DNA from: a bacterium
Lineage (GTDB): Bacteria; Patescibacteriota; JACMRA01
DNA: 51,170 bases
Assembly (NCBI GenBank): GCA_043778555.1
Contig: JAYWFY010000059.1
Coordinates: forward strand, 1 to 51,170
Reading direction: 5' to 3'
Shown here piece after piece: positions 1,171 to 33,397 of this stretch (its first letter is position 1; every line of letters begins with the position of its first letter). The translations under genes and the position numbers were made by a program. A model generated the notes under the pieces. That model searched no databases. It was not told where the DNA came from and saw only the letters and a program-made list of their open reading frames with translations.

Positions 1171-2331
1171 TTAAACTTCCATATTTCTGAGTACAGCCAA
1201 CAAGCGGTCCAAATCCTCGATGTTATTATATGCGTGCAAACTAACTCTAACGCTATCTTTCAATTCTTGTGTGCAATGCTGTCCAATTCTAAGATTAATT
1301 TTATTTTGAGATAGCAAAAACTTTAACTTATCGATACCGTAACTTGGTACAAAACTAACAATTCCTGTATTTTGGATTTTGAGATCATAGCCAGCTCCAG
1401 GCATCAATTCTATAGAGTCAAGTTTGTTAAGTTCCAAAACCAAATATCGAGTCAAACTAGCTATCTCTTGGTGTATATTTTTAATTCCAACACTATTGAT
1501 AAAATCTGTTGCTGAACCCAAGGATAGGATCGAGGCAGTATTTTTGGTTCCAACCTCCAAGCTATATGGAAAATAATTTGTTTCTCCTCCACCAAATTTG
1601 ACTTGCCTGAATTGATTTTTAAATTCGTTGCTAGCAATTAAACCGCCAACTCCTTCAAGTCCAAACATCTTGTGACCTGAAAATAATGCGATATTTACAT
1701 TTAGTTCTTCAAAATTAGTGTTTATGTGACCAGCAGTTTGTGCCATATCTAAAACTGTTATTATATTCTCTGGGATTTGAGCTGTGATTTCTGCTATTGG
1801 ATTAACTAGCCCAAATACATTGTGAGCATGAGTCAAAACTACAAATCTGGTTCTCTCTGTAATATTTGTTAGTAAACTTTTGATATCAATCAAGCCTGTA
1901 AACGGGTCGAGAAGGTATTTTTTGATTTGTATATTTTTACCAACTATTTTTAATTCTTTTGTTAATTCAATCCACGGTAAAATCGTAGCTTTGTGGTCCA
2001 AGTCGCAAATCAAAATTTCGTCCCCATTCATGAGAATATTTTTGGCTAAAGAATTAGTAATAGTATTCATTCCATCTGTAACCCCAAAAGTAAAGGCTAG
2101 ATTGTTTTTTTGAGTTCCAAAAAAATTTGCCACTTTTACCCTTGATTCTTCAATTTGTTCTTCGGTTTCAAAACTCATACCAAAATCACTTCTTCCTGGA
2201 TTTGCAACAGTCTCCAGATATTTAGCAATTGAATCAATGACGCATTTTGGTTTTTGGGAAGTTGCTGCTGAGTCCAAATAAATCAACTCAGGATTGTTTT
2301 GGAAAAATGGGAAATAGCTTCTAATACACAT
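1171..2331 (-). CDS. SufS/CsdA-like cysteine desulfurase (class V PLP enzyme)
   Basis: YLDSAATSQKP, DMAQ, FSGHKMFG (PLP lysine), RIGQHC variant of the group II catalytic RxGHHC motif. Confidence 0.88.
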   Translation of the reverse strand: MCIRSYFPFFQNNPELIYLDSAATSQKPKCVIDSIAKYLETVANPGRSDFGMSFETEEQIEESRVKVANFFGTQKNNLAFTFGVTDGMNTITNSLAKNILMNGDEILICDLDHKATILPWIELTKELKIVGKNIQIKKYLLDPFTGLIDIKSLLTNITERTRFVVLTHAHNVFGLVNPIAEITAQIPENIITVLDMAQTAGHINTNFEELNVNIALFSGHKMFGLEGVGGLIASNEFKNQFRQVKFGGGETNYFPYSLEVGTKNTASILSLGSATDFINSVGIKNIHQEIASLTRYLVLELNKLDSIELMPGAGYDLKIQNTGIVSFVPSYGIDKLKFLLSQNKINLRIGQHCTQELKDSVRVSLHAYNNIEDLDRLLAVLRNMEV

Positions 2332-2333
2332 AA

Positions 2334-3037
2334 TTATCTTAATTTTGCTTCTATAAAAATAGCTTCATGATAGTTAATTTCTTGGTTTAATTCAAATACA
2401 CTAATTTTTGTTGTCGTAAGATTAGAGTTATTAAATAATTGTTCAAGTTTTTTTAAATTAGGATTTAACAATCCTTCCATGTTTGATTCAATCATTTTTC
2501 TTGTAAAATTAGTTACTTTTTTATACCTTAATATCATCAGCAAGAATTTACCATTTGATTCTAACATTTTTGCTACATTGTTTAGTGAGGATATAAAGTC
2601 TGCTTCAGTATTAACACATTCAATTGATTGGATTCCTATTACCATGCTATATTTTTGAGGTAAACTACTTTTTACAAAGTCCAAAATTTCTATTCTATTT
2701 ATTTTTGATACGATGTTTTCAGCTATTTCATGGAAATTTAGCTTGGATGGAATAATGCCATTTTTTTTAAAAATAAAATAGTTTCTTTAAAATTAGCCTC
2801 CAAATACTCTGGACTGAGCTGGTTTATTGTAGCAGATTGAGACTCTATAAAAACTTTATTGCAATCAACAAAATCCACGGTACCAACTTTGTCTATATAT
2901 CCAAGAGACCAATAATGACCAACAGCCCCACAACCAAGATCTAAAACAATGTCTCCGTGTACTTTGGAAATTAATTCTGTAAAGACTAGCTTTCTGATGT
3001 CATTGACTGGGTTAAATATAAAATCAAAATTGTCCAT
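2334..3037 (-). pseudogene. Class I SAM-dependent methyltransferase (NNMT/PNMT/TEMT-like), frameshifted at an A8 run
   Basis: VLDLGCG motif I in the 5' part. One extra A at 2761-2768 joins ...LFLKK to NGIIPSKLNFHEIAENIVSKINRIEILDFVK..., giving a 234-aa ORF that abuts both neighbours. Confidence 0.75.
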
Positions 3038-4364
3038 AACTTTTAATTGTTTTAATAAGTTCAAATTCTTTTTCTTTCCAGGCTTTAATCCCACCGAGTA
3101 ATGAAAATGTAGTATAACCTTGATTTTCTAAAAATGCACAAAATTTACCACTGATTTTACCAACACTACACACGATTACTATTTCTTTGTTCAATGGCAG
3201 AGTATTACCTTGTTCGATAATTGTACCAAAAAGCTCATCAAGTATATTGATAGAATCCTTTATATGCCCTATCGAATAAGCAAAATTACCCCTTATATCT
3301 ATAATAATTGGAGGATTTTGACTGTTAATCTTGAGTAGAAGCTGATCAGGCTCAATTGTTTTCGATATTGCTATTTGATCAGGTGTGATATTGTTGACTG
3401 TTAATCTTGATTGGGTTGATTTTTCAAAAATATCAGGGCAGTATTTTTTGACATAATTCATATATGGTTCTGCCCTATCACAAGCTATAAAAACTACTTT
3501 TTGTTTTTCTTTAAAAGTTTGTGAATTATCAATTTTTTGGAGATAATCGATCATACAAGCATAATTTAATCCACTAGTCGGACCAGCTAGAATTCCACAC
3601 TTCTGATTAATTATTTGCATTCCATAAATAGCTTTCTCGATACTGCCGCTGATAATATCAGTGTAAAACTTTTTATCAAAAAAACCAGTTTCCCAGAGTT
3701 CATTGATATTTCTACCTCCAGGTATCCAGCTTGCTGCTTCTGATATCACTCCAATTGTCTTGACTGGAATATTCATTTGTTTCATATAGCTAGCAGCACC
3801 AAAAGTCGAACCACAAGTACCCAACACACCAAAAAAGTAATCTAAAGTACCCAAATCATTAATTACCTCTTCACCAGTTTTTTGGTGAGCTTTCCAGTTG
3901 TTCTCATTAAAATACTGATCAGTGTATGTCCATTTTGTTGGCTCAGAAATAGCTAAGTTACTCGTTATGGTCAGAGGATTACTTAGATCGTTTGGGTCTG
4001 GACAATCAGATAGCCCTGGTAATTCTTCGATTTGAGCACCCAAAAACTGTAGCATCATCCTTACTTCTTGGACTTTCATCCTATTAGTAATGGTTTTAAA
4101 TTCAAGGTTGTTAATTTTTGCCAAAATAGCTAGTGCCTTGGCTGTGTTACCGCTTGATGACTCAAGTATTGTTTTATTTAATTTTTTAGTTTCCAATAGT
4201 TCAGGTTCTAATATATTTAAAGCAACTCTATCTTTGAGAGAGCCAAAAGGATTATAGTATTCTAGCTTGGCGTAGATTTCAAAGTCATTAAGTTTATGGA
4301 CGCTTTGATCTATTTTTAAAAGCGGGGTGTTGCCTATTAATTCTGTGATATTGTTATAAATCAT
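3024..4364 (-). CDS. Cysteine synthase-like (CysK/CBS fold) PLP enzyme fused to a C-terminal rhodanese
   Basis: IGNTPL, KLEYYNPFGSLKDR, ESSSGNT, GTCGS; C-terminal IIDIR...GHI...CSVGKIS...LLGGIKAW; ATG 4364 overlaps the upstream stop. Confidence 0.9.
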   Translation of the reverse strand: MIYNNITELIGNTPLLKIDQSVHKLNDFEIYAKLEYYNPFGSLKDRVALNILEPELLETKKLNKTILESSSGNTAKALAILAKINNLEFKTITNRMKVQEVRMMLQFLGAQIEELPGLSDCPDPNDLSNPLTITSNLAISEPTKWTYTDQYFNENNWKAHQKTGEEVINDLGTLDYFFGVLGTCGSTFGAASYMKQMNIPVKTIGVISEAASWIPGGRNINELWETGFFDKKFYTDIISGSIEKAIYGMQIINQKCGILAGPTSGLNYACMIDYLQKIDNSQTFKEKQKVVFIACDRAEPYMNYVKKYCPDIFEKSTQSRLTVNNITPDQIAISKTIEPDQLLLKINSQNPPIIIDIRGNFAYSIGHIKDSINILDELFGTIIEQGNTLPLNKEIVIVCSVGKISGKFCAFLENQGYTTFSLLGGIKAWKEKEFELIKTIKSYGQF

Positions 4365-5814
4365 GTGATTGTTGAGTAATATATGGGTTGTAATTTTCTG
4401 GGTTAGTAATTCGCCATAAGTTATTATTTTTATAAGCAACTAGTTGTTTGGACAGTGGGTGCATCATCGGGGAAGCGTCTTCAAAGCCTGCCAAGTAAGG
4501 AGCTGTATTAGTAAAAACTATAACGTCTCCAGTCTCTGGTAATTGATTAAAATAGTGAATCCTGGGGCTCAAAAAATCATCCTCTTGACAGATATTACCC
4601 ACCAAAAATGCTTTATAGTCAGTATTAACAGCTAGTTTATTCTTTTTTATCAAAATGGTGTTGCTATTATACTCTGACATTTTTACTAATGATAAATTAT
4701 ATGAATTGGCATCCATGACTATGAGATTTTGTCCACAACCAGATGATTTGGTTTCTATTACTTCACAGAGACTTATCCCACATTGTTGCAAGAGACTATG
4801 ACCAGGCTCAAACATTATTTCAAATATATTTTCAGCAAGTACACTTGCAATACTATTTCCATTTTGGTAAAATTCACCGAGAAACATATTTTTCAGATCC
4901 TCGCTTAATGTCGAGTTGTAAAACTTACTGAGGGCAGTTTCTTTGTTTTTGATTCTACCCAAACTATTCAATTCTAACCCATACTTACTATTTCCCCAAA
5001 CATAACTGCTATCAGTATTATTTAATATATCTTCTTCAATTTTAACGATAAAATCTGACCATTGACTATAATCAACAATAGTTTTAGTCCTCTGAGTGCC
5101 ACCAAAGTTAATAATGCTTGGAGACAGGTTATACTGGTAAGCTAATTCCAGTTTTTGTATGATAGTATTCAAGAAATCGATTTTAGTTTCAATATCATAT
5201 CCATACTGGTGAAAGTGCAAGCCCTGAAAGTTAATTTGACTATTTAATTCAGCAAACCTAACATACATACATTCAAGATTATCAATACAAACTCCAAACT
5301 TTGATTTTTTGATATTGATTTTTTTGGAAATAGTATTTAGAGAATTAATTCTAAGTAAAATGTTTGTTTTATGGCTCAAATTTAAATATTTACGAATTTC
5401 TAAAACTCTATTTAGTTCACTTTCAGAATCCAAGCTAATCAAGCAATTATGCAAAAGTAAAAGTTGTAAAAATTCGTTATTTTTGGGACCAGTAGCTTCT
5501 ATTTGATCTCCTACAAACCCACAACTCAAGGCAGAGATCAATTCAGCTTTGGAAGATACATCTATATTGATACCTAGTTTTAAGGCTTCTTTTATAAATG
5601 CTTGATTTTTAGTAGCTTTGTGTGCAAGGAATATTTTACCTTTAAAATTATTTTGATCAAAGCAATCTTTGAATATATTTACATTTTTGTATAAATTTTG
5701 TGGAAAACCTATGTGAATTGGTCTTTTGAATTGATTAACAAGCGAGAATATCAAGTCTTCTTCTTTCAAAAAGTCAACTATTTCTTTGTCTATTATTGGA
5801 GTGATGCTAACCAT
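4354..5814 (-). CDS. Y4yA-like type III PLP decarboxylase (diaminopimelate/ornithine decarboxylase family)
   Basis: FLAHKA (PLP lysine), DVSS..EL, SKFG, GLHFH, INFGG, FEPG, GNICQEDD, NTAPY. Confidence 0.85.
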   Translation of the reverse strand: MVSITPIIDKEIVDFLKEEDLIFSLVNQFKRPIHIGFPQNLYKNVNIFKDCFDQNNFKGKIFLAHKATKNQAFIKEALKLGINIDVSSKAELISALSCGFVGDQIEATGPKNNEFLQLLLLHNCLISLDSESELNRVLEIRKYLNLSHKTNILLRINSLNTISKKINIKKSKFGVCIDNLECMYVRFAELNSQINFQGLHFHQYGYDIETKIDFLNTIIQKLELAYQYNLSPSIINFGGTQRTKTIVDYSQWSDFIVKIEEDILNNTDSSYVWGNSKYGLELNSLGRIKNKETALSKFYNSTLSEDLKNMFLGEFYQNGNSIASVLAENIFEIMFEPGHSLLQQCGISLCEVIETKSSGCGQNLIVMDANSYNLSLVKMSEYNSNTILIKKNKLAVNTDYKAFLVGNICQEDDFLSPRIHYFNQLPETGDVIVFTNTAPYLAGFEDASPMMHPLSKQLVAYKNNNLWRITNPENYNPYITQQSHDL

Positions 5815-6739
5815 AAAAACTATCGTATTTAAATTCTGGATTGATTTGAGATTCTAATTTTTGGTCATAATAATCGTTGTACCATGACTGACAATTAAGA
5901 TTATGTACTTTGATCAAATTTTGCCAATATACATCCAAATCACGATTAATTTTTTGGCATTCAATTTCTACATTTTTAAAAACTTCTTCACACTCCAAAA
6001 TGTAGTCATCGAAAGAATCGTAGTCACCCTGTTCAAACTTTTTAATATTTTTTGATTTTGGTATTTCACCTAAAATGTAGCTCGAGTCAATATTTTTGCT
6101 GATAAAATCTTCGTCGCCTGCTTCATACTTATTAATAATACATTTAGTATTCAAATTGTTAATTTCGGAAAAAACTAAAAAATCTTTAAAAACTTGGATA
6201 CTTTTTTCGGTAGGTTCGACTACAAAAATATTGAGATCATGGGCAAAGATTAATGAGGTGCCGAGGTTATCTATCCCAGCAGTAGAATCAGTAATGACCC
6301 AATCACTTTTCCTATCGATAAGGTGGTGAAAGACAGACTCTAGACATTTCAACTTGCCATGGTAGCATGCTGTACCCAAATCGCTTTGCTGATAGGTTCC
6401 AACCGTAAGTAACGAGATGTTGTCATGAGATAAGCAATACTTTTCTATAAATGGATCAGATTTATTGGTATAAATAAATTGTGAATCAAAGTTTGGAGGT
6501 GTAGTTCCTATAAATTTGGTTTCAACTTTTCGCTTTCCTTTGATATAATTTGAGATTTCTGGGAATAAATTTCCTATTTTTTTGGTTTCCCCTTTGAGCT
6601 GCAAGGCATTTTGCAAATGAACATTGAGGTCTGCATCAATTGCTAACACATGCTGATTGTTTTGACTTAAATATTTTGTAAAAGCTGCAGTAACAGTTGT
6701 TTTTCCACTTCCACCTTTACCTAAAAATGACACTCGCAT
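5807..6739 (-). CDS. CooC/MinD-like P-loop ATPase
   Basis: GKGGSGKTT deviant Walker A, AIDAD, GTACYH (CxH in place of the CooC CxC), DSTAG, VVEPT. Confidence 0.85.
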   Translation of the reverse strand: MRVSFLGKGGSGKTTVTAAFTKYLSQNNQHVLAIDADLNVHLQNALQLKGETKKIGNLFPEISNYIKGKRKVETKFIGTTPPNFDSQFIYTNKSDPFIEKYCLSHDNISLLTVGTYQQSDLGTACYHGKLKCLESVFHHLIDRKSDWVITDSTAGIDNLGTSLIFAHDLNIFVVEPTEKSIQVFKDFLVFSEINNLNTKCIINKYEAGDEDFISKNIDSSYILGEIPKSKNIKKFEQGDYDSFDDYILECEEVFKNVEIECQKINRDLDVYWQNLIKVHNLNCQSWYNDYYDQKLESQINPEFKYDSFYG

Positions 6740-6779
6740 AATAATATATTTTATGATTTTAATTGTAATATTGTAGATT

Positions 6780-7445
6780 TTATTTTTCTTCCTTCTTGTT
6801 TGTTAATTTTACTTGTAATAAAGTGGTCACTAGTTTTCCACTTTCGTCTATATATGGATACATTATTGTATCACCAAAGTATACTTGCTGCTCAGAGAAA
6901 AGGTCAATATTTGATTGATTGAGATTAAAAGGATCTGTTGCGTCTGGTAATTTATCTTGATAACAATTTGGTCCAAAAACTAACTTTCGCTTTGGAAGAT
7001 TGGACGATTTTGTAGCTGATAAGTAATCGCTGCTATTAGTTTCGATATATTTAGTAATATTTGGGTCTAGATCAATAATACAAAAGTACTTAGCAGGATC
7101 AAAATAATTTTGGGTTCCTTCCCAAAAAAATGTATCAAACAGTGCAGCGTTTTGAGGGTGAACCCTATATGATTCAGATTTAAGAAGCATATCTTGGCTA
7201 ACTTTCCAAGTTTTTATTTCCTTTTGAAGTTTTAAAAAGCTCTCATGATTTGTGATAAATACCTTTGGAGATTTTTCTGGTCTAGTACATTGTTCAATTT
7301 TTTTGGAATAATTGTTTAATTCCTTGCTGGTAACAATCTCCCTAAATAAACCAATCCTTTTAAAGGCCATAATTTTATCTTCAATCTCATCAACATAGGG
7401 ATTATTAGTAGTTTGTTTTTCTCTTTCTAAAAGTAGTTTTATCAT
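6780..7445 (-). CDS. Hypothetical protein
   Basis: Open frame within the operon; ATG 7445 lies 4 nt after the GTPase stop. Confidence 0.7.
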   Translation of the reverse strand: MIKLLLEREKQTTNNPYVDEIEDKIMAFKRIGLFREIVTSKELNNYSKKIEQCTRPEKSPKVFITNHESFLKLQKEIKTWKVSQDMLLKSESYRVHPQNAALFDTFFWEGTQNYFDPAKYFCIIDLDPNITKYIETNSSDYLSATKSSNLPKRKLVFGPNCYQDKLPDATDPFNLNQSNIDLFSEQQVYFGDTIMYPYIDESGKLVTTLLQVKLTNKKEEK

Positions 7446-7449
7446 AATT

Positions 7450-8685
7450 TTATTGTTTTTGTTCAATTTTAAATGAAGTTGCATTAGTATATTCAAAACT
7501 AGCCATATCTTGTTCAGATTCAAGACATTTATTTAATTCGGTAGTAATTTTTTGTTCGTCAATTCCCATTCCAATGAATACGATCTCTTGTCGCCTGTCA
7601 CCATATTCACCCTCAAATAGTGATTCAATTTTGTTTATTTCCTCAAAATCTCCAGGCCAATATTCATTATCTGCACAAATCCACCAAGTCCCAATAGAAT
7701 TGCCTAATATGATACTAACTCCAGCTTGTGAGTATTCAAAAACCCTATCCATATCGTCACTTATCCAATACATTCCTTTGGCACGGATTACACCAGCTAA
7801 TTTGCTTGAAGTCAACAATCTTTCTAGCTTCTCTGGATTGAATGGACGCCTTGCTCGATATACAAAATTAGAAATGCCATATTCTTCTTTTTCAGATTTG
7901 TGCTTGTTGCTTAGTTCTTCATTCCAAGCTTCGGTTTTTTGGGATGCATCCATGTCAAATAGCCTAGTATTGAGAATTTTGTCCAATTCAATATTAGAAT
8001 TGTTAGTTACATAGATTTTGGCTGTTCCGTTGAGGCTTTTGATAAGGGTTTTAATCTTGGCTATTGTTTGAGCATCTATCAAGTCAATTTTATTAAGTAA
8101 GATCACATCGGCAAATTCAATTTGGTCTATGATTAGATTCGACAAGCTTCGATCATCTTCTTCGCCCAAGGATTGTTTTAATTCAAGTAAGGTTTTGCCT
8201 TCGTTCATAATCGACAAGAAATTACTTGCATCAACGACTGTAACCATGGTATCTAATTCTGCTACATCTCCAAGGCTTTTGCCATCTTCTCCAACAAAAG
8301 TGAATGTTTGGGCGACGGGTAGAGGTTCACTAATTCCACTAGATTCTATTACTAGATAATCATATTTGCCTGATTTGGCTAGTTTTTCGACCTCTATGAG
8401 TAAATCTTCTCGGAGTGTGCAACAAATGCAGCCATTGCTGATTTCTACCATTTTGGCTTCTTGTTTGCGGACTTCACCGCCGTTCATTCTGATTAATTCA
8501 GCGTCTATGTTAACCTCTGCCATGTCATTGACTATTACCGCTACTTTTTTGCCTTCTGAATTATTGAGAATATGATTGAGCAGTGTGGTTTTGCCTGAAC
8601 CTAGGAAACCAGAGATAACTGTAACTGGCAATTTTTTGAAATCTTTTGTGAGACTTTTTGACTTTTTAGAAACAGACTTTGACAT
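7450..8685 (-). CDS. COG0523/CobW-family zinc metallochaperone GTPase (ZigA/YciC-like)
   Basis: [13 protein letters not shown] metal motif, ESSG, NKID, CobW_C-like RAKG...[11 protein letters not shown]. Confidence 0.95.
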
Positions 8686-8692
8686 ATATTTT

Positions 8693-8721
8693 AGTATTGC
8701 AACTTAGTTGCATTTTGTCAA
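8693..8721 (-). promoter_or_regulatory. Sigma70 promoter with a Zur-like palindromic operator in its spacer
   Basis: TTGACA (8721-8716)-17-AATACT (8698-8693); perfect palindrome TGCAAC-tta-GTTGCA at 8698-8712. Confidence 0.75.
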
Positions 8722-32971: not shown

Positions 32972-33397
32972 ATGTCCAAAAAACTAGTATATATAATGCT
33001 GTCAGGTGGAGTAGATTCCTCAGTTGCAGCCGCCAAACTCCTTGAGCAAGGACATGATTGCGTTGGAGTATTTATGAAATGCTGGTCAATGCAGCAAATT
33101 GAACGAATGCATTTGTCAACCGATCTATATGATTGTAGCTGGGAAGATGACGTTCAGGATGCAGAGCTAGTGGCAAAAAAACTTGATATGCCTTTTGAAG
33201 TTTGGGATTTTCAAGATGAATATTACAACAAAGTAGTGCGATATATGATAGACGAATACAAAGCAGGTCGCACTCCCAATCCTGATGTAATGTGTAATGG
33301 TAATATCAAATTTGGCATATTTTATGAGAAAGCTATTGAGCGTGGTGCAGACTTTGTAGCAACAGGACACTACGCTAGGATTGTTGACTTGGTTTAG
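32972..33397 (+). CDS. mnmA: N-terminal domain only of tRNA 2-thiouridylase MnmA (split or truncated)
   Basis: SGGVDS, TPNPDVMCN, ATGHYAR then stop; no DQSYFL continuation visible downstream. Confidence 0.8.
   Translation: MSKKLVYIMLSGGVDSSVAAAKLLEQGHDCVGVFMKCWSMQQIERMHLSTDLYDCSWEDDVQDAELVAKKLDMPFEVWDFQDEYYNKVVRYMIDEYKAGRTPNPDVMCNGNIKFGIFYEKAIERGADFVATGHYARIVDLV

Follow-up and report, generated by a model that had tools for sequence, protein, structure and literature searches.

A candidate Zur-controlled operon combining metal chaperones with pyridoxal phosphate and sulfur-transfer enzymes in a member of the Patescibacteriota

The DNA analyzed here, a stretch of 51,170 nucleotides (nt) of contig JAYWFY010000059.1 (assembly GCA_043778555.1) from a bacterium of the Patescibacteriota lineage JACMRA01 and hereafter termed the window, carries seven minus-strand genes, G1 to G7 (positions 1171-8685), behind one promoter that lies upstream of all of them; the host genome has a size of 964 kb and is 75.7% complete. 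In the direction of transcription, these genes encode a ZigA-like GTPase of the COG0523 family (G1, 7450-8685); a protein of 221 amino acids without family match (G2, 6780-7445, with an ATG start; the longest open reading frame (ORF) begins at TTG 7523); an ATPase of the CooC/MinD class (G3, 5807-6739); a fold-III pyridoxal 5'-phosphate (PLP) enzyme that is Y4yA-like and a presumed decarboxylase (G4, 4354-5814); a CysK-like PALP domain fused to a rhodanese domain (G5, 3024-4364); a class-I S-adenosylmethionine-dependent methyltransferase that is interrupted by a -1 frame change (G6, 2334-3037); and a SufS-like cysteine desulfurase (G7, 1171-2331). The start ATG of G5 is M26 of a 471-amino-acid ORF, and a start at that point is used by 78 of 80 homologs. 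The gene overlaps at 5807-5814, 4354-4364, and 3024-3037, which an earlier reading of the letters alone (the sequence-only reading) had pointed out, were exact when the sequence was rechecked, and the remaining intergenic gaps measure 4, 40, and 2 nt. That reading had also remarked on the lack of a nonribosomal peptide synthetase (NRPS), an NRPS-independent siderophore synthetase, and a transporter; Pfam and NCBIfam scans of G1 to G7 likewise found no such domains and no IucA/IucC domain. The explanation that we favor, and to which we give an even chance, is that the operon constitutes a Zur-repressed pathway to an undescribed, small zinc ligand with nitrogen and sulfur donors.

The operon promoter (8693-8721, minus strand) consists of the -35 element TTGACA (8721-8716), a 17-nt spacer, and an extended -10 element, TG-AATACT, that ends at 8693; the palindrome TGCAAC-N3-GTTGCA (TGCAACTTAGTTGCA, 8698-8712), which is read as a Zur box, fills the spacer between them. 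Since the G1 start codon at 8685 follows only 7 nt after the -10 element, the operon transcript is, from this layout, probably leaderless. An exact match to the palindrome was observed once in the 964-kb genome (0.03 expected) and matches with one mismatch twice (1.3 expected), which gives three sites within one mismatch, the operon copy included. The one-mismatch copy at C37:18354-18368 precedes, at a distance of 12 nt, a Fur-family gene that is the only one of this genome, and the promoter of that gene repeats the operon layout of -35 element, box, and extended -10 element; a gene for a znuA-like cluster-9 binding protein and then a gene for an ATP-binding cassette (ABC) ATPase follow downstream. 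The other one-mismatch site (C45:46767) falls within a long ORF in a phage-like region; it was taken as a chance match, because 1.3 such sites are expected. A plus-strand terminator, suggested by a scan that flags the palindrome as a hairpin with a T-run, was rejected since no plus-strand gene ends there, and also because the box recurs at the promoters of zur and znuA.

Five relatives within the family (genomes G001, G002, G003, G006, and G012) also carry the box. It was found upstream of zur in G001, G002, and G003, where the G002 copy precedes a zur-ZIP transporter pair; upstream of znuA-znuC in G006 and G012; and upstream of G1 orthologs in G001, G002, and G012, with the G001 box positioned 13 nt before the start codon in a promoter of identical build. 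As far as sequence can tell, this distribution is the phylogenetic footprint of one predicted regulon with three components, namely its own regulator, genes for zinc uptake, and the operon led by the COG0523 gene, and the palindrome, by its placement, behaves as the operator of the single Fur-family repressor of the genome, in agreement with the Zur box proposed from the operon alone. The G012 box on contig C17 (L119, 2223-2237) has the G1 operon on one side and, in divergent orientation, a pantoate-beta-alanine ligase gene on the other, so that panC may share the control region. In the genome under study, a symmetric box with two mismatches (TACAACTAAGTTGTA, C17:11123-11137) is intergenic and precedes a glyceraldehyde-3-phosphate dehydrogenase (GAPDH)-like gene by about 110 nt; it may be a further regulon member or a chance match, with 24 two-mismatch sites expected. 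In addition, all three sequencing runs yielded a contig that joins position 6723 to position 8695, in other words the promoter piece to the start of a G3-like gene (39 intervening letters; depth 34-62; shorter side 24), and it seems that another strain or organism in the samples has the box directly before G3, without G1 and G2.

The cassette recurs far beyond this genome, with a patchy distribution close to it. Among 25 further genomes of the family, 3 were found to encode a G4 ortholog (46-48% identity); farther out in the phylum, a sample of 35 genomes gave nothing beyond weak matches, in 4 of them. The order G3-G4-G5-G6-G7 is syntenic in G002, G006, and G012; in the latter, contig C17 carries the box followed by G1-G2-G3 and contig C16 carries G3 through G7, so that the two contigs together make the whole operon with its box common across genera. 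Scanning one genome per species located G4 relatives at 99 loci, 80 of which were kept; their neighbors within approximately 9 kb were clustered together with those of the window (81 loci, many of them cut by contig ends). Judged by record labels as given, the 80 loci belong to Obscuribacterales, Melainabacteria, or other Cyanobacteriota (39 loci), Micavibrio (nine, including the complete genome of M. aeruginosavorus), other Alphaproteobacteria (five), Pseudobdellovibrionaceae (two), other proteobacterial labels (three), Bacillota-type bacteria (four), Actinomycetes (two), Chloroflexota (two), Saccharibacteria (two), Spechtbacteria (one), and Woesearchaeota (one), with unnamed or doubtful labels for ten. 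G5 was present at 78 of the 81 loci, an Aminotran_5 gene at 66, and a CooC-like gene at 65; the 87 copies of the latter all lie on the strand of G4, with a median position directly upstream of it (offset -1062). A Fur-family gene accompanies the cassette at 44 loci and a COG0523 gene at six. The grounds that the sequence-only reading had named for abandoning it included a gene set that does not co-occur elsewhere and a palindrome that is missing from other zinc genes; since the box stands before other zinc genes in five relatives and the gene set recurs at 99 loci under many phylum labels, neither of these applies. No paper describing this cassette was found in the literature, supplementary gene tables being outside reach.

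Around this core the cassette varies by lineage. Additions include an amine oxidase (28 of the 81 loci), two uncharacterized proteins (27 and 26 loci), an Asp/Arg-hydroxylase-like protein (25), methyltransferases (22 and 17), and an MFS/BT1 transporter (10); a replicon of Streptomyces sp. BHT-5-2 (L122) has the order FMN dehydrogenase-G4-G5-G7-methyltransferase, without G3 in the DNA examined. Inverted repeats near cassettes of other phyla were found in one of five intergenic stretches. This repeat, in Micavibrio aeruginosavorus (L077, 7688-7746), is a 29-nt inverted repeat with the center ATAACA-T-TGTTAT; it closely precedes the first gene of the cassette, which is of the IscS type, and its center presumably resembles proteobacterial Zur boxes. 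Another family of the phylum contributed two separate G4-like pieces (G050, C23:103301-104506; L009 and L014), one with 39% identity over residues 8-123 and one with 33% identity over residues 397-467, the latter with one TAA stop; they look like a decayed copy.

The single Fur-family regulator of this genome is read as Zur from its gene context and not assigned by family model: its best family match is a Bacillus-type Fur model (47.8 bits; Zur model, 19.8), and its sequence carries two CxxC motifs and HQHYH. The binding protein beside it scores 158.6 bits on the zinc AztC model and 149.1 bits on the manganese MntC model. It is therefore appropriate to consider a signal other than zinc, with the regulator sensing manganese, iron, or peroxide; Fur and PerR models as the best family matches of the regulator, the near-equal manganese and zinc scores of the binding protein, the adjoining regulator of a Saccharibacteria cassette, which scores best as PerR, and the two-mismatch box upstream of the GAPDH-like gene would all be in keeping with it. 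On the other hand, G1 is ZigA-like and has the CxCC motif, the boxed zur of G002 is followed by a ZIP zinc transporter, Zur is the best-scoring model (101.9 bits) for the Fur-family gene adjoining the Micavibrio cassette, and at one cassette (L057) the neighbors include ABC-3 permeases and a COG0523 gene; a non-zinc signal thus appears quite unlikely. In Spechtbacteria and Saccharibacteria, the Fur-family gene abuts G3.

The first three genes of the operon combine two predicted metal chaperones with a protein peculiar to this lineage. G1 has cobW (PF02492, 1.4e-57) and CobW_C (PF07683, 2.1e-18) domains and the motif GCICC (CxCC); it matches ZigA and other Zur-regulated COG0523 proteins in domain build, in the CxCC motif, and in its first position behind a Zur-type box, and differs from ZigA in remaining below the cut-off of the ZigA equivalog model NF038288 (530.7 of the required 600 bits) and in its coupling to a biosynthetic cassette. 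G2 has two homologs among 5.8 billion protein clusters, and a profile search yielded 11 representatives among 1.84 billion proteins, none of them named; an ortholog with 37% identity lies between G1 and G3 in G012, and a truncated form occurs in G002. An existing Atlas model of G2 has a predicted local distance difference test (pLDDT) score of 0.34 and no feature match of 0.9 or more, and the structure prediction of 6780-7445 that the sequence-only reading had suggested as a check reached a pLDDT of only 49.4 (AlphaFold2, alignment of five sequences). From these searches, G2 appears restricted to this lineage and fast-evolving.

G3 is a CbiA/MinD-type ATPase with the deviant Walker A motif GKGGSGKT, and its best solved relative is CooC1 (3kje, E 5.5e-12, residues 1-230), so that its designation as CooC-like holds. 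The metal motif of CooC is Cys-x-Cys (CXC). G3 shares with CooC the deviant Walker A motif and the overall likeness, but its own motif is Cys-x-His (Cys125-Tyr-His127, with C125 and H127 kept in 87 of 87 copies), which we take to sit at the place of the CXC motif, and it adds a conserved C-terminal extension of about 70 amino acids. These features would fit a metal-binding, dimerizing ATPase. Family scans found no CO dehydrogenase gene among the operon proteins; the whole genome was not searched for one. The kinship of G3 to a nickel-insertion ATPase raises the question of whether the operon serves the maturation of a metallocenter or cofactor, in which the ATPase, together with a relay from desulfurase to rhodanese, would build either a metal-sulfur site or a metal-bound cofactor on a client enzyme, possibly G4 or G5 itself. 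Such a function would account for the invariant Cys-x-His at the position of the CooC metal motif, for the placement of G3 directly upstream of G4 and on the same strand at most loci, and for the presence of a second nucleoside triphosphatase chaperone, G1, in the operon; yet an alignment of 21 sequences revealed no further conserved Cys/His cluster in G4 beyond the usual catalytic residues, some cassettes, such as that of Streptomyces sp. BHT-5-2, are without G3 in the DNA examined, and no requirement for an inserted metal is known for PLP enzymes with these folds. We consider a maturation function distinctly improbable. Under a pathway to a zinc ligand, which we favor, G3 and G1 would instead handle the metal.

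G4 has the ornithine/diaminopimelate/arginine decarboxylase fold and full-length similarity to annotated Y4yA proteins, which bears out its label as Y4yA-like: it shares 27.4% identity over 90% with the annotated Y4yA of NGR234 (E 4e-34) and 23-27% identity over 90-100% of its length with plasmid Y4yA proteins, and in each of the 33 plasmid records that gave a match, 80% of G4 or more is covered. In contrast, it remains below the cut-off of the LysA model TIGR01048 (100.6 vs. 297.9 bits), and LysA structures match it at E 7e-11 or weaker only. An NCBIfam scan of G4 gave no match to a Y4yA model, with the qualification that it was not established whether the library includes one. The relatives of G4 form a distinct group of 53 protein clusters, beyond which similarity falls off steeply, with LysA-like proteins next at E 3e-8. 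Residues K66, H202, G238-G239, E336-G338, C409, and D413 are invariant in the 21 aligned sequences; we take them to be the PLP lysine, the HxxG histidine, the GGG phosphate loop, the EPG motif, and the catalytic Cys and Asp. No characterized Y4yA enzyme was found in open papers, with supplementary gene tables again outside reach.

On plasmids of other bacteria, the Y4yA gene occurs next to a gene for a CysK-like enzyme. In pNGR234a this pair is accompanied by genes for a ParB-N protein, an opine dehydrogenase, IucA/IucC, and a major facilitator superfamily (MFS) transporter; in the Mycobacterium avium plasmid pMAH135 by an ornithine cyclodeaminase and a multidrug and toxic compound extrusion (MATE) transporter; and on a Sulfitobacter plasmid the Y4yA gene is located beside sbnA, with a flavin adenine dinucleotide (FAD) protein. 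The pairing in three clusters suggests that a PALP enzyme together with Y4yA forms a recurring module of metallophore-type clusters, and in each a beta-substituting PALP enzyme adjoins a Y4yA-type fold-III PLP enzyme, as G5 adjoins G4. The plasmid clusters differ from the window operon in adding ornithine cyclodeaminase, FAD protein, opine dehydrogenase, IucA/IucC, or transporters, and no rhodanese domain, desulfurase, or CooC-like ATPase appears in the annotation seen. Conversely, family scans of the window operon found no SbnB-like or FAD oxidase gene, the oxidoreductase by which the pseudodipeptide is split in the L-2,3-diaminopropionate (L-Dap) module. The CysK-like and Y4yA pairs are presumably related to the SbnA/SbnB L-Dap modules and to the genes for ethylenediamine disuccinate (EDDS). 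The EDDS genes share the Zur control proposed for this operon: EDDS is described as a zinc-repressed chelator whose production is under Zur (PMC9252823).

M. tuberculosis CysM is an O-phosphoserine enzyme that uses the CysO thiocarboxylate as protein-bound sulfur donor, and it is one of two enzyme types with which G5, by Pfam a PALP domain followed by a C-terminal rhodanese domain, can be compared. The structure model of G5 (pLDDT 90.1) was closest, over both of its domains, to aspergillomarasmine A (AMA) synthase (8h4q, Z 35.7, 427 residues aligned; 8h4h, Z 35.5, 423 residues aligned), at 22-23% identity. The other 48 entries listed (cystathionine beta-synthase, CysM, SbnA, and others; Z 31.6-33.1) match the PALP domain, residues 1 to approximately 324 at most, so that AMA synthase is the only solved structure among the matches listed that has the two-domain build of G5; M. 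tuberculosis CysM is among the close matches (Z 32.8). Conservation extends to both domains, with K69 and the family-specific C146 kept in 80 of 80 sequences, the rhodanese C424 in 77 of 80, and SSGN and the phosphate loop maintained. Against NCBIfam models, G5 scores 148.6 bits on cysKM, 144.2 on the SbnA family, and 136.5 on cysM, and misses the cut-offs of 344-414 bits. It is also the only PALP enzyme found in the genome.

AMA synthase, with PALP and rhodanese-like domains, joins O-phosphoserine to aspartate; the Fusarium poae enzyme Fda4, which also uses PLP and has a rhodanese-like domain, joins it to alanine (PMC12751119; bioRxiv 2025.10.30.685158; PMC8319579). AMA itself is described as a natural Zn2+ metallophore (PMC8829947). 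G5 has the domain order of both fungal enzymes, a CysK-like PALP domain followed by a rhodanese-like domain, and shares with AMA synthase the PLP lysine and the loop motifs PxPND and PGxR; AMA synthase, in contrast, has no Cys at the position of the invariant Cys146 of G5. Desulfurase and Y4yA-like partners, with both of which G5 travels, are not reported for the fungal pathways in the part of PMC12751119 available to us. From sequence comparison and the structure model, the closest analogy for the operon would move from staphyloferrin B to AMA synthase combined with the CysK-like/Y4yA-type pair. CysM with CysO offers an analogy only: like it, G5 is a PALP enzyme for which a protein could serve as the sulfur carrier, but the carrier of CysM is a ThiS-like thiocarboxylate and that of G5 would be the persulfide of its fused rhodanese domain.

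G7 belongs to the Aminotran_5 family and is SufS-like, with its PLP lysine in the motif SGHK and its catalytic Cys in RIGQHC; with 259.6 bits on TIGR01979 (cut-off 475.1), it is not a SufS equivalog. It is the second cysteine desulfurase of a genome that encodes a housekeeping SufS and SufB/D elsewhere. Among 70 copies of the desulfurase partner in the cassette, 35 are of the SufS type and the others of the IscS type, for example in Micavibrio, or divergent, and the catalytic Cys column is kept in 64. The mixture of types with a preserved Cys indicates that the activity is conserved and not one enzyme lineage, which argues that sulfur mobilization belongs to the pathway.

This conservation brings primary sulfur metabolism into consideration, as a persulfide-dependent route to cysteine or to a cysteine-derived amine such as cysteamine, which would be turned on because a zinc-dependent step elsewhere fails; G7 would load the rhodanese domain, the PALP domain would make the C-S bond as CysM does with CysO, and G4 would decarboxylate the product. 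The conserved desulfurase activity and rhodanese Cys would agree with such a route, as would the status of G5 as the only PALP enzyme found, its near-equal scores on the cysKM and SbnA models, and the close structural match to M. tuberculosis CysM. Nevertheless, cysteine as both sulfur donor and product would be futile, G5 misses all cysteine synthase cut-offs by approximately 200 bits, its full-length structural match is an enzyme that forms C-N bonds, the cassette is sporadic within the family (3 of 25 genomes), and the oxidases, hydroxylases, and methyltransferases that join it in other lineages are more typical of accessory than of core metabolism. Overall, a role in primary sulfur metabolism is improbable.

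The methyltransferase gene G6 is split into two frames, 2738-3094 and 2334-2684, by a -1 frame change at a run of eight A residues (A8, 2761-2768), which forms a perfect A_AAA_AAA -1 slippery site exactly at the frame break; the G6 orthologs of three relatives are in a single frame, and family matches of G6 are weak only. Across the whole operon, the contigs of three sequencing runs, all from one study, are free of indels; two of these runs are possibly the source of this DNA, and one contig of the third is identical over 2666-3303. The agreement of the three runs at the A8 run places the frame change in the DNA itself. G6 may be a decaying pseudogene, or may be read via ribosomal or transcriptional slippage at the A8 run. 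The seven-gene set and its family assignments in the sequence-only reading therefore stand, except that the methyltransferase is not a single open frame, and the methylated, S- or Se-containing amine proposed there as the product is not borne out.

The Zur-repressed pathway to a zinc ligand that we favor starts from direct observations, namely the anatomy of the operon, the sharing of the operator, the cassette's conservation and its association with Fur-family genes, the catalytic residues, and the structural likeness of its enzymes; from these we infer the substrates, the order of the steps, the product, its secreted or intracellular role, and every chemical step described here. The Fur-family protein, read as Zur, would bind the palindrome inside the promoter spacer, so that RNA polymerase would be blocked while zinc is sufficient. 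Under zinc scarcity the ZigA-like GTPase G1, the lineage-specific protein G2, and a four-enzyme core of G3, G4, G5, and G7 would be made, and this core would turn activated serine into a small zinc ligand with nitrogen and sulfur donors. In the first step, G5 would form PLP-aminoacrylate, most likely from O-phosphoserine, and add a nucleophile to it, which could be the amine of an amino acid, a persulfide sulfur, or both; in the second, G7 would take sulfur from cysteine and deliver it to the rhodanese cysteine of G5; in the third, G4 would remove the alpha-carboxylate to leave a 2-aminoethyl unit; in the fourth, G6 would methylate the product where its gene is intact; and in the fifth, G3, through its invariant Cys-x-His, would handle the metal together with G1. 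Zur-controlled, PLP-based metallophore synthesis would be the known kind to which such a pathway belongs, and the cassette would be a variant of it that is undescribed in the literature found.

As a caveat, several observations weigh against this explanation. Family scans of the operon found no exporter, importer, or binding protein for a ligand. CysE and SerC were not found in the 75.7% complete genome, which leaves the source of activated serine unaccounted for, and a route that moved the sulfur of cysteine onto a serine skeleton would be futile with cysteine as its product, so that the sulfur acceptor is unexplained. Both characterized PALP-rhodanese enzymes form C-N bonds and need no desulfurase (PMC12751119). 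The patchy spread of G4 within the family, the family-model scores of the regulator, and the narrow margin of the zinc over the manganese model for the adjacent binding protein point in the same direction; since G6 is frameshifted, the pathway may moreover be altered or decaying in this strain.

A bolder proposal concerns the conserved quartet, which consists of the CooC-class ATPase with its Cys-x-His motif, the Y4yA-like enzyme, the AMA-synthase-like PALP-rhodanese protein with C146, and a desulfurase of interchangeable type. It is possible, though on balance doubtful, that this quartet represents a categorically new metal-handling system, in which a sulfur-bearing ligand is loaded with metal in an ATP-dependent manner and serves as a zinc shuttle or metallocofactor and not as a secreted chelator, above all in predatory, episymbiotic, or small-genome microbes; these users were judged by record labels, namely Micavibrio, Obscuribacterales, Saccharibacteria, and the lineage studied here. 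The boldest reading of the data would be a sulfur-bearing ligand or cofactor that belongs to a new class and receives its metal from a CooC-type ATPase, and we regard it as a tentative one that is rather unlikely to be correct.

To our knowledge, the response to zinc starvation has been mapped well, but the list of zinc-scavenging molecules is short and includes none from small genomes of the candidate-phyla type. The cassette offers a compact, NRPS-free enzyme set that is tied to Fur/Zur-type control in many lineages and has culturable carriers in Micavibrio aeruginosavorus HCB189 and Streptomyces sp. BHT-5-2. Aspergillomarasmine A is a zinc chelator that has been studied as an inhibitor of metallo-beta-lactamases. 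The product of the cassette, if found, would add a new biosynthetic route to metal ligands, would explain the roles of Y4yA-type enzymes and of CooC-like ATPases outside CO dehydrogenase, and would show how organisms of minimal metabolism compete for zinc. The shared operator provides a first regulon and a leaderless promoter design, both predicted, for this little-known bacterial family.

The remainder of the window consists of ordinary chromosomal genes, among them those for EF-G, purD, def, ychF, sodA, htrA, ndk, and xerC. A tRNA search of the window found none, and no Rfam family reached its gathering score there, nor was any found within positions 1-1200 at E values up to 1. Downstream of the operon, on the minus strand, positions 1045-1016 are a perfect match to a TTGACA-18-TATAAT promoter (12 of 12 positions); it is followed, within 700-1045, by a G+C-rich, structured-looking stretch without a long ORF at approximately 780-870, and the region 700-1045 may encode an uncatalogued small RNA. 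Finally, an ORF at 32972-33394 covers only the first 125 or so of the 345 positions of the MnmA model; this MnmA-like gene is truncated, split, or misassembled.

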